Shown: positions 1 to 8,161 of the stretch, piece after piece
Layout of the letters: every line of letters starts with the position of its first letter
Position numbering within the stretch: position 1 is the stretch's first letter
Assembly (NCBI RefSeq): GCF_003018235.1
Contig: NZ_CP027437.1
Source of the DNA: Escherichia coli
GTDB lineage: Bacteria; Pseudomonadota; Gammaproteobacteria; Enterobacterales; Enterobacteriaceae
Strand: one strand, 5' to 3'
DNA length: 64,000 bases
Translations under genes and position numbers: made by a program
The notes under the pieces: model-generated
Told to the model about the DNA's origin: nothing
Database searches by the model: none
What the model saw: the letters and a program-made list of their open reading frames with translations, nothing else

Positions 1-573
1 CAGTTTGATGGCACTGCCGAACAGGCACAACTGCCTGGGAAACTGTTTACGCAAAATATTGGTGCGCACGAAAGCAAAGCGCCAGAAGGTGTTTTGCCGG
101 TAAACCATACTCAGCAGGGCGAAGCGCAAATCTGGCGTCGCGAAGTGAGTTCCCGATACGGCCAGTATCCGAAAGCGCAGGCGGCGCAACCAGATCAATT
201 AATGTCGGATTATTTTTTCCGGGTGTCGCTGGCGATGCAAAACAAAACGCTGCTTTTCTCCCTCGATGACACGCTGGTTAATAACGCCCTGCAAACACTG
301 AATAAAACCCGCCCGGCAATGGTGGATGTAATACCCACTGATGGCATCGTTCCGCTCTATATCAATCCACAAGGCGTGGCGAAACTGCTGCGTAACGAAA
401 CGCTGACCAGTCTGCCGAAGAATCTCGAACCGGTTTTTTATAACGCCGCACAAACTTTATTAATGCCGAAGCTGGACGCTTTATCTCAACAACCGCGTTA
501 TGTCATGAAGCTGGCCCAGATGGAACCCGGTGCCGCCTGGCAGTGGCTACCCATAACCTGGCAGCCGCTATGA
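1..573 (+). CDS. yfaA: YfaA-like protein, C-terminal part; 5' end lies upstream of the window
   Basis: Reading frame is open from base 1 to the stop at 571-573. Position upstream of yfaT-yfaS-yfaQ-yfaP matches remembered E. coli gene order; not searched. Confidence 0.6.
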
Positions 574-1193
574 GGCACGGGCTGCTGGCGCTGATTTGCT
601 GGCTGTGTTGTGTTGTTGCCCATAGCGAAATGCTGAATGTCGAACAATCCGGGCTGTTTCGCGCGTGGTTTGTACGCATTGCACAGGAACAACTCCGCCA
701 GGGGCCAAGCCCACGCTGGTATCAGCAGGATTGTGCGGGCCTGGTGCGATTTGCGGCGAACGAGGCGCTGAAAGTTCACGACAGCAAATGGCTAAAAAGT
801 AACGGTATAGCAAGTCAGTATTTGCCGCCTGAAATGACGCTAACACCTGAACAGCGTCAACTGGCGCAAAACTGGAATCAGGGGAACGGGAAAACCGGCC
901 CCTACGTGACCGCGATTAATTTGATTCAGTACAACAGCCAGTTTATTGGCCAGGACATAAACCAGGCGCTGCCTGGCGATATGATTTTTTTCGATCAGGG
1001 CGATGCCCAGCACTTAATGGTCTGGATGGGGCGTTACGTCATCTACCACACCGGAAGCGCCACGAAAACTGACAACGGAATGCGCGCAGTCAGTCTGCAA
1101 CAACTTATGACATGGAAGGACACCCGATGGATACCCAACGATTCCAATCCCAATTTCATTGGCATTTATCGTTTAAATTTTCTGGCGCGATAG
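570..1193 (+). CDS. yfaT: YfaT-like protein (DUF1175 family), 207 aa from ATG 570
   Basis: ORF 543..1193 in the supplied track; ATG at 570 overlaps the yfaA stop (ATGA) and gives 207 aa, the length I recall for YfaT. Start choice is inference. Confidence 0.6.
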
Positions 1194-4100
1194 CAGCGTG
1201 CTTGTGCCTGTCTTTTGTGGGAACAGGGCTTGCTAATGCTGATGATTCGCTTCCTTCCAGTAACTATGCGCCGCCCGCCGGGGGAACATTCTTTTTGCTT
1301 GCTGACAGCAGTTTTAGCAGCAGTGAAGAGGCGAAAGTGCGACTGGAAGCGCCGGGGCGTGATTATCGGCGCTATCAGATGGAAGAGTACGGCGGCGTGG
1401 ACGTTCGCCTGTATCGTATTCCTGACCCGATGGCATTTTTGCGCCAGCAGAAAAACCTGCATCGCATTGTGGTGCAACCGCAATATCTGGGCGACGGGCT
1501 GAACAATACGCTGACCTGGCTGTGGGATAACTGGTACGGCAAATCTCGCCGCGTGATGCAGCGTACTTTCTCTTCTCAGTCACGGCAGAATGTGACTCAG
1601 GCATTACCCGAATTACAGCTCGGCAATGCCATTATTAAACCTTCCCGTTATGTACAGAACAACCAGTTTTCCCCGCTGAAAAAATATCCACTGGTGGAAC
1701 AGTTCCGTTACCCATTATGGCAGGCTAAACTGGTCGAGCCGCAGCAAGGGGTAAAACTGGAAGGCGCATCCAGCAATTTCATCTCGCCGCAGCCGGGCAA
1801 CATCTATATTCCTCTCGGCAAACAAGAGCCGGGACTGTACCTCGTCGAGGCGATGGTCGGTGGATATCGGGCGACGACGGTGGTATTTGTCTCTGATACC
1901 GTGGCGCTTAGCAAAGTGTCGGGTAACGAGCTCCTGGTGTGGACCGCGGGTAAAAAACAGGGGGAAGCGAAGCCGGGATCAGAGATCTTGTGGACTGACG
2001 GTCTTGGCGTGATGACCCGCGGTGTGACCGATGACAGCGGTACCTTGCAGTTACAACATATATCGCCGGAACGTTCATACATTCTGGGTAAAGATGCTGA
2101 AGGCGGCGTTTTTGTCTCCGAGAATTTTTTCTACGAAAGCGAAATCTACAACACCCGCTTGTATATCTTTACCGACCGCCCTCTGTATCGTGCAGGCGAT
2201 CGTGTTGATGTCAAAGTGATGGGCCGCGAGTTCCACGACCCGTTGCATTCATCCCCCATCGTCAGCGCCCCGGCGAAGCTTTCAGTGCTGGACGCCAACG
2301 GCAGTCTGTTGCAAACCATCAATGTCACGCTGGATGCGCGTAATGGCGGGCAGGGGAGTTTCCGCCTGCCAGAAAATGCCGTCGCCGGAGGTTATGAGTT
2401 ACGCCTGGCTTACCGCAAACAGGTCTATAGCAGCAGTTTTCGCGTAGCCAACTACATCAAACCACATTTTGAGATTGGCTTAGCCCTCGACAAAAAAGAG
2501 TTCAAAACAGGCGAAGCGGTCAGCGGCAAACTGCAACTGCTTTACCCGGATGGAGAGCCGGTAAAAGATGCCCGCGTGCAGTTAAGTTTGCGATCCCAAC
2601 AACTGTCGATGGTGGGCAACGATTTGCGTTATGCCGGACGTTTTCCCGTGTCGCTGGAAGGCAGTGAAATGGTGTCCGACGATAGCGGTCATGTGGCGTT
2701 AAATCTCCCCGCCGCTGATAAACCAAGCCGTTATTTGTTAACCGTCTCCGCCAGTGACGGTGCGGCGTATCGTGTCACCACCACCAAAGAGATCCTCATT
2801 GAACGTGGCCTGGCGCATTATTCATTAAGTAATGCCGCACAATACAGTAATAGCGGCGAGTCGGTTGTGTTCCGTTATGCCGCGCTGGAATCTTCAAAAC
2901 AGGTTCCTGTTACGTATGAATGGTTGCGTCTCGAAGACCGCACGAGCCATAGCGGAGAGCTACCGTCAGGCGGCAAATCTTTTACCGTCAATTTCTCTAA
3001 ACCTGGCAACTACAATCTGACATTACGCGATGAAGACGGCTTAATTCTCGCTGGGTTAAGTCATGCCGTCAGCGGTAAGGGCAGCACGGCGCATACTGGT
3101 ACGGTAGATATCGTGGCGGATAAAACGCTGTACCAGCCAGGCGAAACCGCGAAGATGCTGATTACTTTCCCGGAGCCAATTGATGAAGCATTATTGACGC
3201 TGGAACGCGATCGCGTTGAACAGCAGTCGCTGCTATCGCATCCGGCAAACTGGCTAACGCTACAACGTTTAAACGATACCCAGTATGAAGCCCGGGTTCC
3301 AGTGAGCAATTCCTTTGCGCCTAACATCACTTTTTCGGTGCTGTATACCCGTAATGGTCAGTACAGTTTTCAGAACGCCGGGATCAAAGTTGCCGTTCCT
3401 CAGCTTGATATCCGGGTAAAACGGACAAAACCCATTACCAGCCTGGTGAACTGGTCAATGTCGAATTAACCTCGTCGCTGAAAGGTAAACCTGTTTCTGC
3501 GCAGCTAACGGTTGGCGTGGTCGATGAAATGATCTACGCGCTGCAACCGGAAATCGCGCCGAATATCGGCAAATTTTTCTATCCGCTGGGGCGTAACAAT
3601 GTGCGTACCAGCTCCAGTCTGTCGTTTATCAGCTACGACCAGGCGCTCTCCAGCGAGCCGGTTGCGCCTGGCGCGACTAACCGCAGCGAGCGGCGAGTAA
3701 AAATGCTTGAACGTCCACGGCGTGAAGAGGTGGATACCGCGGCATGGATGCCGTCACTCACAACTGATAAACAAGGCAAAGCGTATTTCACGTTCCTGAT
3801 GCCTGATTCGTTAACCCGTTGGCGCATTACAGCCAGAGGGATGAACGGCGACGGGCTGGTCGGGCAGGGGCGTGCTTATCTTCGTTCGGAAAAAAATCTC
3901 TACATGAAGTGGAGTATGCCAACGGTGTATCGCGTGGGCGACAAACCGGCGGCAGGACTGTTTATCTTCAGTCAGCAGGATAACGAACCGGTGGCGCTGG
4001 TGACTAAATTTGCAGGCGCTGAGATGCGCCAGACGCTGACGCTGCACAAAGGGGCGAATTATATTTCGCTGACGCAGAATATTCAGCAATCTGGCTTGTT

Positions 4101-7380: not shown

Positions 7381-7384
7381 TGCT

Positions 7385-8161
7385 ATGCGAAAGATTTTTC
7401 TTCCGTTGTTACTGGTGGCGCTTTCGCCTGTTGCCCATGGCGAAGGTGTGCAGGAAGTCGAGATTGATGCACCACTCTCTGGCTGGCATCCGGCAGAGGG
7501 CGAAGATGCCAGTTTTTCACAATCGATCAATTACCCGGCGTCGTCCGTCAACATGGCAGATGATCAAAATATCTCAGCGCAGATCCGCGGCAAAATAAAG
7601 AATTATGCTGCGGCGGGTAAAGTTCAGCAGGGCCGGCTGGTGGTCAACGGTGCCAGTATGCCGCAGAGAATTGAATCCGATGGTTCATTTGCACGCCCTT
7701 ATATTTTCACTGATGGCAGCAACAGCGTGCAGGTCATCAGCCCAGATGGGCAAAGCCGACAAAAAATGCAGTTTTACTCAACGCCGGGCGCTGGAGTGAT
7801 CCGCGCGCGTTTACGGCTGGTTCTCTCCTGGGATACGGACAATACCGACCTCGACCTTCACGTTGTTACACCTGATGGCGAACACGCCTGGTACGGTAAC
7901 ACCGTGCTGAAAAACAGTGGTGCACTGGATATGGATGTCACGACGGGGTACGGCCCCGAGATTTTCGCCATGCCAGCGCCGATTCACGGACGTTATCAGG
8001 TGTATATCAACTACTATGGCGGACGCAGCGAAACGGAATTGACGACCGCCCAACTGACGCTGATCACCGATGAAGGATCGGTCAATGAGAAACAGGAAAC
8101 ATTTATTGTACCGATGCGTAACGCTGGCGAGCTGACGCTGGTGAAAAGTTTTGACTGGTGA
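7385..8161 (+). CDS. yfaP: YfaP-like secreted protein (DUF2135 family), 258 aa
   Basis: ORF with N-terminal signal peptide (MRKIFLPLLLVALSPVAHG); last gene of the yfaATSQP cluster by synteny. Confidence 0.7.
   Translation: MRKIFLPLLLVALSPVAHGEGVQEVEIDAPLSGWHPAEGEDASFSQSINYPASSVNMADDQNISAQIRGKIKNYAAAGKVQQGRLVVNGASMPQRIESDGSFARPYIFTDGSNSVQVISPDGQSRQKMQFYSTPGAGVIRARLRLVLSWDTDNTDLDLHVVTPDGEHAWYGNTVLKNSGALDMDVTTGYGPEIFAMPAPIHGRYQVYINYYGGRSETELTTAQLTLITDEGSVNEKQETFIVPMRNAGELTLVKSFDW

Follow-up and report, generated by a model that had tools for sequence, protein, structure and literature searches.

The closest described system is magABCDEF (PA4492-PA4487) of Pseudomonas aeruginosa, which encodes the Mag complex, or type II system. 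Published work on magBCDEF covers assembly of the complex, the structure of MagC and Gac/Rsm regulation (PMC3735191, PMC5764988, PDB 7BK8, PMC12663445). MagD forms 1:1 complexes with MagA, MagB and MagF, of which MagB is the membrane anchor, and MagD with an engineered TEV site traps TEV protease non-covalently, without a thioester (PMC5764988). MagC binds peptidoglycan, as cited in PMC10318531. In 2025 the Mag operon was reported to protect against the peptidoglycan-targeting T6SS effectors VgrG3 and Tae1 (PMC12663445). The yfa cluster of Escherichia coli is the orthologue of magBCDEF, with matching families in matching order: YfaA corresponds to MagB, YfaT to MagC (75% identity), YfaS to MagD (~53%), YfaQ to MagE (~54%) and YfaP to MagF (~55%). 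It is largely ordinary. The initial annotation regarded the cluster as essentially unstudied, a view overtaken by the Mag literature and by a published deletion phenotype and fold assignment for yfaQ (PMC12282094).

Layout and products of the yfa cluster

The window, a 64,000-nucleotide stretch of E. coli contig NZ_CP027437.1, begins within the cluster. Open reading frames (ORFs) and megablast comparison with annotated E. coli genomes place the 3' end of yfaA, yfaT, a frameshifted yfaS, yfaQ and yfaP at positions 1-8161, all on the + strand. The five genes are indeed there on a single strand, except that yfaA is represented by its 3' end only (1..573, the last 190 codons and the stop, from the annotation of matching genomes). 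Of the 1689 nt of the gene, the final 573 are inside the window; its start and the region upstream of the operon lie outside, and full-length yfaA was seen in a locus of the same lineage (L105). The start of yfaT (570..1193, 207 aa) overlaps the yfaA stop in a 4-nt ATGA, yfaT and yfaS (1127..5730 in its original frame, from ORFs and megablast) overlap by 67 nt, the yfaS stop abuts the start of yfaQ (5731..7380, 549 aa), and a gap of 4 nt separates yfaQ from yfaP (7385..8161, 258 aa). The upstream start of yfaS has two supports: tblastn similarity begins at residue 1, and a ~63-nt overlap of the A2M gene with yfaT/magC is conserved in Pseudomonas loci.

Downstream, ORFs and megablast place atoB (8235-9419) convergent with the cluster. 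A GC-rich hairpin between yfaP and atoB (8201..8222, 9-bp stem, scored on the - strand) is, as a consensus match only, the probable shared terminator and 3' end of the unit. Promoter-like sites inside the unit were not above chance (1 versus 5.9 expected). At the other end, 148 nt separate yfaA from gyrA upstream, and a search upstream of yfaA found no consensus promoter. No sign of Gac/Rsm-like input in E. coli was seen beyond a GGA-containing Shine-Dalgarno sequence. As read from this layout, the cluster appears to be one translationally coupled transcription unit for five exported proteins. Two of the partners had been credited with signal peptides, which is too few: on inspection, three of them (YfaT, YfaQ and YfaP) begin with a signal peptide that looks cleavable, as does YfaS, and YfaA carries a membrane helix at its N-terminus. 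Table 2 of PMC3735191 gives the same pattern for the Mag proteins, and SignalP 6 agrees for YfaQ (PMC12282094).

Pfam matches are consistent for all five proteins. A full-length homologue of YfaA matches DUF2138 (PF09909, E 3.5e-287). Structure prediction, which the initial annotation had proposed as a check, gave an AF2 model of YfaA (pTM 0.83) with a transmembrane helix at residues 11-35 and one of YfaQ (pLDDT 83.6) with two enzyme-like folds. YfaA is the orthologue of MagB and, by that orthology, would be the scaffold anchored in the inner membrane. YfaT (DUF1175, PF06672) matches MagC with E 2.5e-103, and its 75% identity to PDB 7BK8 indicates an NlpC/P60-like fold; it scores 21 bits against Pfam NLPC_P60, below the cut-off of 23. 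Its invariant residues are C55 (in DCAGLVRF), H148 and H160. YfaP, with a C-terminal DUF2135 domain (YfaP_C, PF09906), aligns with both Pseudomonas paralogues, MagA and MagF, and is the beta-rich partner of the MagF/MagA family. MagA and MagF are both COG4676, and the COG assignments agree with the Yfa orthology (PMC3735191, Table 2).

Inactivation of yfaS in this lineage

The central gene had been called inactivated, and the cause is a deletion of a single G (GGGTGAAAAC to GGGTAAAAC) between T3417 and A3418. The site (3414..3420, + strand) lies upstream of the bait region; the frame shifts at codon ~764 and ends at a stop at 3467-3469. The N-terminal frame (1127..3469) encodes the signal peptide and MG domains, and the remainder in the original frame (3418..5730), which encodes the rest of the bait-region domain, A2M, a thioester-like domain and bMG10, is cut off from translation initiated at the yfaS start. 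An intact homologue has MG2 (3.3e-26), A2M_BRD (5.1e-18), A2M (3.2e-12) and bMG10 (5.9e-6) in one protein; in the window lineage these domains are divided between two ORFs. Given that YfaS is cut at about residue 764, ahead of the bait region, the trapping function is predicted to be lost in this genome, and the other genes are intact.

Single-base indels are the commonest type of assembly error, and the disruption might accordingly be an artefact of sequencing or assembly, or else a frameshift that is programmed, in a gene that is truly functional. There is practically no likelihood of this, and both versions are effectively refuted. The deletion is not in a homopolymer run, no slippery heptamer is present at the site, and the sequence is in frame in every other E. 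coli genome (the deletion occurs in 0 of 5,172 complete genomes). Independent short-read assemblies of related isolates (SRR22548703, SRR18885539 and 22 similar places besides) share the 80-mer exactly, have yfaS split in the same way, and are 4 SNPs away from the window over 9.5 kb. Because the deletion is absent from 5,172 genomes yet identical in independent assemblies of the lineage, it is real and fixed in the lineage. The repaired ORF has no other lesion and its codon differences are mostly synonymous (75 versus 25 nonsynonymous), indicating that the frameshift is recent. The region had implicitly been taken as K-12-like, which is incorrect in two respects: the window is ~3% divergent from K-12 across the cluster (among complete E. 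coli genomes, the closest match has 98.1% identity), and the K-12 lesion is a different one, an in-frame stop at codon 1367 of yfaS.

Lesions in E. coli are sporadic and independent. Apart from the yfaS nonsense codon of K-12, they include an internal stop in yfaQ of O157 AR-0429, a truncated yfaT in O26 11368, and one genome without yfaT and yfaS. These suggest that the system is dispensable in many niches. Independent hits to different genes in different lineages would also be expected if the cluster were a decaying, effectively functionless remnant, kept by inertia and eroded by lineage-specific mutations. The fully degenerate thioester site and the lack of a consensus promoter upstream of yfaA could be read in the same way, as could a YfaQ-msfGFP fusion that was below detection in E. 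coli (PMC12282094). It is quite improbable that the cluster is such a remnant, given that all 9 of the non-K-12 genomes sampled have an intact yfaS, that the region is present at a coverage of at least 80% in 5,362 of 5,426 genomes, and that yfaQ occurs in ~98% of 131,610 genomes (PMC12282094). The predominance of synonymous codon differences and the K-12 deletion phenotype described below also argue for function.

The thioester site of yfaS is vestigial. At 4321..4350, aligned with PYGCLEQTAS of ECAM, Cys, Glu and Gln are all replaced; CxEQ has become GGVIN, and the Pseudomonas remnant, GGVEQ, is less decayed. Mag-type A2Ms with an intact CxEQ (GCVEQ) were found in 15 of 78 sequences from species genomes and in 5 of 5 distant metagenomic ones. 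The equation of type II with thioester-less is thus not universal, and absence of the thioester does not define the operon type, which is a minor new point. Residues 22-25 of YfaS (IAAC) formally fit a lipobox; an AxA-type signal-peptidase I site follows, however, and the Cys varies even among Escherichia sequences, with Tyr in L004.

Proposed function and the role of YfaQ

The best explanation is that the Yfa cluster is the Mag-type trap system of E. coli and that YfaQ keeps a macroglobulin-independent role, and we consider this explanation, taken as a whole, probable. By orthology with P. aeruginosa, the scaffold and partners would keep the macroglobulin at the inner membrane, and a hydrolase entering the periplasm would cut the bait region and be caged non-covalently. 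The system would in this way shield the cell wall from incoming peptidoglycan-degrading T6SS effectors. Going by their folds, YfaT and YfaQ may be peptidoglycan-directed modules that tie the trap to the sacculus, or that service the sacculus. The intact genes probably persist because YfaQ at least acts in envelope homeostasis independently of the macroglobulin, as it does in K-12, whose yfaS is likewise non-functional. The complex and its trapping are known from P. aeruginosa; a Yfa counterpart in E. coli is predicted by orthology.

YfaQ (DUF2300) is predicted to have a penicillin-binding/beta-lactamase fold in its N-terminal domain and a SpoIID-like domain in its centre, and it carries an HExxH motif in its C-terminal part. 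A transpeptidase-like plus SpoIID-like architecture was published for the E. coli protein in 2025 (PMC12282094); the models obtained here appear to reproduce the published folds and add invariant candidate catalytic motifs. Foldseek with YfaQ returned 336 matches at E<=1e-3, and the best 50 of the 336 were all serine beta-lactamases, PBPs or BlaR1/MecR1 sensors. The N-terminal fold is backed by two methods, both applied to one AF2 model, and comparison with an OXA-10 sequence profile (hhalign) was not significant. The candidate SxxK motif, S60-L-W-K63 (5908..5919, + strand), is at the N-terminus of model helix 59-73; together with S108-C-G and K195-T-W it is invariant in 41 sequences, motif placement being judged from predicted secondary structure only. 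Invariant E334 aligns with the catalytic Glu of SpoIID (E101 in C. difficile), YfaQ matching only part of the SpoIID fold and solved SpoIID chains weakly by profile (E 0.02-0.2). The invariant HExxH, H520-E-Y-L-H524 (7288..7302, + strand), is on predicted helix 512-526 and is accompanied by invariant D535-E536. No zincin was matched by the YfaQ C-terminus in Pfam, and a PDB profile search gave only chance matches to angiogenin.

In K-12, cells deleted for yfaQ are broader, and their phenotypic profile associates with mepK, mepS and nlpI (PMC12282094). K-12 has a natural yfaS pseudogene, and this altered cell width and clustering with peptidoglycan-hydrolase mutants would fit a peptidoglycan-maintenance module in which YfaQ and YfaT are working enzymes and the macroglobulin is a regulator or scaffold, not a trap. 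The invariant candidate catalytic residues of both proteins are in keeping with such a module. Its accessory genes would survive the loss of yfaS, and yfaT, yfaQ and yfaP are indeed intact alongside dead yfaS in the window; however, the frameshift is recent, and the survival of neighboring genes therefore says little. MagD traps a protease in vitro (PMC5764988), and the A2M gene is the best-retained core, present even where YfaQ and YfaP are missing. DUF1175, the MagC family, is classed as inactive (PMC10318531), and YfaQ/MagE is a putative enzyme. A maintenance module is consequently doubtful, if the most plausible of the alternatives. MagE of P. aeruginosa was located in the cytoplasm and outside the Mag complex (PMC3735191), which is hard to reconcile with action on peptidoglycan in the periplasm.

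A more elaborate proposal makes YfaQ/MagE not a passive partner or chaperone but a three-module sensor-effector, with a BlaR1/MecR1-like sensor, a SpoIID-like glycan-strand domain and an HExxH site. The penicillin-binding fold (SxxK, SCG, KTW) would be acylated by stem peptides released on wall damage, and the C-terminal HExxH site would process the macroglobulin; altered MagD forms in a P. aeruginosa magE deletion mutant are cited in its support. The covalent thioester macroglobulin would be ancestral and lost later in the Pseudomonas and enterobacterial lineages. If true, the Mag/Yfa operon would couple the detection of cell-wall injury to the arming of a trap. This proposal is very unlikely.

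Distribution and relation to known systems

The initial annotation described a conserved operon-like cluster of a second A2M, distinct from YfhM, with four partners, and pointed to co-occurrence as the check. ORFs, Pfam matches and gene order bear this out. Wherever a locus in the 80 species-representative genomes is long enough, the five families occur in one and the same order, and the fixed order extends to the most distant detectable YfaA homologues, at 24-29% identity. The one exception is a 3-gene variant that lacks YfaQ and YfaP and keeps the A2M gene. All five E. coli proteins match Pseudomonas loci in the same order and on the same strand (43-77% identity). None of the five proteins matched a PADLOC model of a known anti-phage defence system.

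The family is present in many host-associated species, as would be expected of a host-directed colonisation factor, in which the macroglobulin mainly neutralises host proteases in the periplasm and the peptidoglycan link is incidental. Such a role was reportedly first proposed by Budd et al. in 2004 (as cited in PMC3735191). Virulence in chronic infection is lower for a magD mutant, as cited in PMC5764988, and type I ECAM binds neutrophil elastase (PMC3735191). However, soil and plant Pseudomonas, Methylobacter and environmental metagenomes carry the family equally, peptidoglycan-enzyme folds are found in two of the four partners, and the one unambiguous phenotype of losing the system concerns bacterial T6SS effectors that act on peptidoglycan (PMC12663445). 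A primarily host-directed role is therefore unlikely.

Individual Yfa proteins resemble known peptidoglycan enzymes. YfaT/MagC shares the fold of NlpC/P60 endopeptidases such as MepS (7BK8), with an invariant Cys in a DCxGL context and, like MepS, a pair of His residues spaced by 12, but the family (DUF1175) is classed as catalytically inactive, although peptidoglycan-binding (PMC10318531, citing Zouhir et al. 2021). With class D beta-lactamases, PBPs and BlaR1-MecR1 sensors, the YfaQ model would share SxxK, S-C-G and K-T-W at topologically expected places, whereas its third motif is KTW instead of KTG and sequence-profile similarity is not detectable. The alignment of E334 with the catalytic Glu likewise suggests a relation to SpoIID/SleC lytic transglycosylases, the fold being matched in part only.

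Among macroglobulin systems, type I YfhM (ECAM) or Salmonella Sa-A2M with PbpC is homologous to YfaS, sharing multiple MG domains and a bait region (hhalign against ECAM, 99.3% probability, 22% identity). Both types are periplasmic and genetically coupled to a peptidoglycan enzyme of penicillin-binding fold. Unlike YfaS, which lacks a thioester and has four partners, ECAM has a lipobox, an intact CLEQ thioester, covalent trapping and the single partner pbpC. The penicillin-binding-fold protein carries a GT51 glycosyltransferase domain in type I and a SpoIID-like domain in YfaQ. Assignment of YfaS itself to type I was rejected, as it has no CxEQ and no pbpC nearby, yfhM-pbpC being elsewhere in E. 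coli. Compared with Mag, the macroglobulin is truncated in this genome, and magA, an upstream paralogue of yfaP present in Pseudomonas, was not found in the Escherichia, Superficieibacter, Enterobacillus or Yersinia loci. Since several distant clusters also consist of five genes, the six-gene arrangement with magA is a Pseudomonas-type variant and not a defining trait. Mag and Yfa are alike in a macroglobulin without the thioester Cys, in signal peptides on the partners, in a scaffold with one transmembrane helix, and in an A2M gene whose start overlaps the gene before it.

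A Mag-type operon between gyrA and atoB

The cluster yfaA-yfaT-yfaS-yfaQ-yfaP (window 1-8161) is an already known system with a lineage-specific yfaS pseudogene. By sequence comparison, it fits the mag operon of Pseudomonas aeruginosa gene for gene, such that YfaA would be MagB, YfaT MagC, YfaS MagD, YfaQ MagE and YfaP MagF. YfaT is 75% identical to P. aeruginosa MagC (PDB 7BK8) over 186 residues, and the other four E. coli proteins share 43-58% identity with the products of the Pseudomonas cluster (tblastn). The published operon table comprises the paralogues MagA and MagF (COG4676), MagB with a transmembrane (TM) helix, MagC, the alpha-2-macroglobulin (A2M) MagD, and MagE (PMC3735191).

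The initial annotation regarded the cluster as essentially unstudied, which no longer holds in view of the published work on the P. aeruginosa mag operon and on E. coli YfaQ. MagD is periplasmic and inner-membrane-associated, is mutually dependent for stability on MagA, MagB and MagF, and is controlled by RetS/Gac/RsmA jointly with the H1-T6SS, and it co-precipitates TssM1 (PMC3735191). MagD binds MagA, MagB and MagF 1:1, with MagB as the membrane anchor, and deletion of magB or of magE alters the MagD forms; with an engineered bait region, it traps TEV protease non-covalently after cleavage (PMC5764988). A further report, citing Zouhir et al. 2021, describes MagC as having an NlpC/P60-like fold and binding peptidoglycan, and classes the family as inactive (PMC10318531). 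Macroglobulin systems form a layer of bacterial envelope self-defence that is still poorly understood. The Mag-type operon has only lately been linked to resistance against T6SS cell-wall toxins: a 2025 CRISPRi screen revealed that the mag operon shields P. aeruginosa from the peptidoglycan-targeting T6SS effectors VgrG3 and Tae1 (PMC12663445). In E. coli K-12, cells deleted for yfaQ are wider, and their phenotype profile is linked to mepK, mepS, nlpI and others; the same 2025 study described a Sec signal peptide in YfaQ together with transpeptidase-like N-terminal and SpoIID-like C-terminal parts, and found yfaQ in ~98% of 131,610 genomes (PMC12282094).

The locus is flanked by gyrA and atoB in 5,422 of 5,426 complete E. 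coli genomes (megablast), and matching genomes annotate it as yfaA (DUF2138), yfaT (DUF1175), an alpha-2-macroglobulin family protein, yfaQ and yfaP. All large open reading frames of window 1-8161 are on the plus strand. Reading frame and megablast annotation place the 3' part of yfaA at 1-573, the last 573 of its 1689 nt, because the window begins within the gene. The cluster and the inactivation of its central gene are as first described, except that the cluster is cut at the window edge. yfaA is followed by yfaT (570-1193), the frameshifted yfaS (1127-5730), yfaQ (5731-7380) and yfaP (7385-8161), and a hairpin (8201-8222) lies between yfaP and the convergent atoB (8235-9419). yfaA and yfaT share a common ATGA, yfaT and yfaS overlap by 67 nt, yfaS and yfaQ abut with zero gap, and 4 nt separate yfaQ from yfaP. 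Promoter-like sites within the unit do not exceed chance frequency, and no consensus promoter was found inside it or, in the same lineage, 5' of yfaA. The overlapping and abutting genes and the lack of a promoter excess fit a single, translationally coupled transcript. No Rfam match was found in 1-9500, only chance-level repeats were found on both strands, PADLOC defence-system models gave no match, and NCBIfam matched yfaA alone, as a 'hypothetical protein'.

PGAP starts E. coli yfaS at a GTG 30 codons 3' of the K-12 start, with loss of the signal peptide (window 1127-1216; also in RefSeq records, for example L001 at 4127-4216). The longer start is probably the correct one, since the longer form resembles Pseudomonas MagD from its first residue onwards and the A2M gene's overlap of ~63-67 nt with the preceding gene is conserved.

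Conservation of the cluster across species

When a YfaT alignment was run against GTDB genomes, one per species, 319 species proved to have a relative. The best 80 loci were fetched with 10-kb flanks and searched by tblastn with the five E. coli proteins. All five genes, in the same order and on the same strand, are present in every one of these loci not cut by a contig end, which belong to Escherichia spp., Superficieibacter, Enterobacillus, Yersinia alsatica, ~70 Pseudomonas species and Methylobacter. A partial exception is P. capsici (L066), in which the downstream YfaP-type gene is absent and the upstream, MagA-type paralogue is kept; a small lipoprotein-like ORF that is not a YfaP/MagF homologue follows magE there (16800-17300). 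The extra YfaP paralogue (~40% identity) lies 5' of the YfaA homologue in Pseudomonas and Methylobacter, but not in enterobacterial loci.

The YfaA family is small, with 331 clusters at E<=1e-3 in a search against 1.84 billion representative proteins. Wherever the contig is long enough, relatives at 24-29% identity are followed by MagC (DUF1175), A2M, DUF2300 and YfaP_C. One contig (L102, 1-10618) holds a three-gene variant of DUF2138, MagC and an A2M with the CxEQ thioester motif; it has no DUF2300 or YfaP-family gene, and a convergent, unrelated gene follows the macroglobulin. The proposal that the cluster is conserved was borne out, with a fixed order at the complete loci among the best 80 and around the 24-29%-identity relatives. 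A lack of co-occurrence had been named as the result that would argue against a functional system; the co-occurrence observed instead strongly supports one. A further distant Mag-type cluster (L103, 1-12942) lies directly 3' of BREX genes (MmeI-type methyltransferase, PglZ and BrxL), a defence-island-like setting.

Inactivation of yfaS

In the window, yfaS lacks a single G (GGGTGAAAAC -> GGGTAAAAC) at 3417/3418, which shifts the frame at about codon 764 and leads to a premature stop at 3467-3469. The truncated YfaS would retain the signal peptide and N-terminal MG domains; most of the bait-region domain would be missing, as would all of the A2M, thioester-like and bMG10 domains. The gene is dead, as initially reported, but by a lesion unlike the one probably meant, the in-frame stop at codon 1367 that makes yfaS a pseudogene in K-12. 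The window is not K-12, from which it diverges by ~3% in this region, and the closest complete genome is only 98.1% identical to the region. The G deletion is absent from all 5,172 complete E. coli genomes compared, and yfaS is intact in nine of nine other E. coli genomes in a spread sample. About two dozen E. coli-labelled contigs encode YfaQ and AtoB proteins identical to those of the window. In two independent short-read assemblies of this lineage, at 4 SNPs in 9.5 kb from the window, the 80-mer is identical and yfaS is split in the same way. The mutation is therefore real and fixed in a clonal lineage, and sequencing error and programmed frameshifting were both rejected. The lesion is also recent. 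Once repaired, the yfaS reading frame has no further defect; compared with an intact allele, 75 of its codons differ synonymously and 25 non-synonymously.

Independent lesions affect different cluster genes across E. coli lineages. In addition to the K-12 nonsense codon in yfaS (L002), yfaQ has an internal stop in O157 AR-0429 (L096), yfaT is shortened in O26:H11 11368 (L095), and genome HCM-25C-3 (H73) has a yfaT-yfaS deletion.

The trap function is gone in this genome. The intact neighbouring genes probably persist partly through the youth of the yfaS lesion, and may persist also through a macroglobulin-independent envelope role of YfaQ, suggested because K-12, a natural yfaS mutant, shows a yfaQ phenotype. 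The implied annotation of the locus is a Mag-type operon with a yfaS pseudogene, the trap gene being truly dead in this lineage.

Other differences were observed along the window. atoB (8236-9000) diverges by 4.3% from the best-matching genome and by 7% from K-12, above the 0.5-3% of the yfa genes, a contrast that suggests recombination with a boundary between yfaP and atoB. The eco-mqo spacer (30487-30587) has one ~113-bp unit compared to five tandem copies in K-12, and yejO (44629-47220), an 863-aa ORF, is without the IS5 that splits the K-12 copy. Relative to K-12, a ~10.3-kb insertion (47324-57647) is located exactly at tRNA-Pro(GGG) proL (57650-57726). Two integrase-family proteins, the first of them P4-type, are encoded there, along with an AAA_25 Rep/primase-like protein, DUF4222, PerC and a 631-aa protein in which a ClpP-type prohead protease is fused to an HK97-like capsid protein. 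The insertion looks like a capsid-forming, PICI-like phage satellite.

Components of the proposed trap and comparison with known systems

The AlphaFold2 model of YfaQ (pLDDT 83.6, 39 homologues) gave 336 Foldseek matches at E<=1e-3; every one of the 50 listed is the structure of a serine beta-lactamase, a PBP or a BlaR1/MecR1 sensor. Model and matches reproduce the published bipartite fold as a prediction. Comparison of the N-domain profile with an OXA-10 sequence by hhalign was not significant, so it is the predicted structure that points to a penicillin-binding fold. An internal repeat, as in the Pfam description 'tandem DUF2300', was rejected, since N- and C-terminal parts did not align significantly (hhalign E 0.21, 15 columns). 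Across 41 sequences with identity down to ~36%, invariant residues include S60-x-x-K63, where the first long helix begins; S108-C-G; K195-T-W, located on the first strand past the helical subdomain; E334, aligned with catalytic Glu101 of C. difficile SpoIID; and a DSS..QR motif. Also invariant, on predicted C-terminal helices, are H520-E-x-x-H524 (HEYLH, window 7288-7302) and the subsequent D535-E536. Searches of the isolated YfaQ domains against Pfam at E<=10 matched DUF2300 only and no zincin family, and a profile of the last 110 residues matched only angiogenin in the PDB, at chance level; only the HExxH motif itself would suggest a zincin. S60, K63, S108, K195, E334 and H520/E521/H524 of YfaQ/MagE are candidate catalytic residues and direct targets for mutagenesis. 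These residue-level predictions, with the thioester distribution, are small, testable additions.

The YfaA model (pLDDT 85.9, pTM 0.83, TM helix 11-35) has no close structural relative and resembles small periplasmic alpha/beta domains only weakly. YfaT contains an invariant Cys-His-His set with NlpC/P60-like spacing. Between Escherichia and Pseudomonas, YfaT/MagC is 69-77% identical, compared to 43-48% for YfaA and 50-58% for YfaS, YfaQ and YfaP, a high conservation that is odd for a protein described as an inactive peptidoglycan binder.

At the PYGCLEQTAS site of ECAM, the aligned YfaS segment has no thioester motif; the site residues are replaced, and thus no thioester is possible in YfaS. 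Among 78 macroglobulins from Mag-type clusters of species genomes, 52 have GGVEQ and 15 an intact CxEQ as GCVEQ (PYGCVEQTAS). The latter (L009, L012, L018, L021, L022, L028, L032, L035, L038, L044, L049, L052, L054, L072 and L081) include P. viridiflava, P. indica, P. citronellolis, P. delhiensis, P. panipatensis and Methylobacter. CGVEQ, with the Cys displaced by one residue (PYCGVEQ), occurs in two, GSVEQ and GGVEH in one each, and GGV(I/V)N in all seven enterobacterial members. All five distant metagenomic Mag-type macroglobulins (L083, L085, L088, L101 and L102) have PYGCVEQT, and in three this Cys is the sole one of the protein. [quoted passage not shown] Judged from the motifs, lacking a thioester is not a property of the operon type, and the accepted split into type I (thioester present) and type II (thioester absent) conflates operon type with thioester status, since many Mag-type macroglobulins have an intact CxEQ. 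The CxEQ distribution makes a thioester-bearing ancestor with repeated loss likely, E. coli being the most decayed state.

By orthology to P. aeruginosa, a YfaA scaffold and YfaP would hold YfaS at the inner membrane, where a hydrolase entering the periplasm would cut the bait and become caged without covalent linkage; the system would thereby guard the cell wall against injected peptidoglycan hydrolases. From their folds, YfaT and YfaQ may connect the trap with peptidoglycan or take part in peptidoglycan repair or remodelling. The P. aeruginosa mag operon has magA, whereas the E. coli cluster does not. ECAM/YfhM, a type I macroglobulin, is a homologue of the YfaS family (hhalign 99.3%, 22% identity), and the putative link of YfaS to peptidoglycan through YfaT and YfaQ has a parallel in type I macroglobulins, which are paired with PBP1c.
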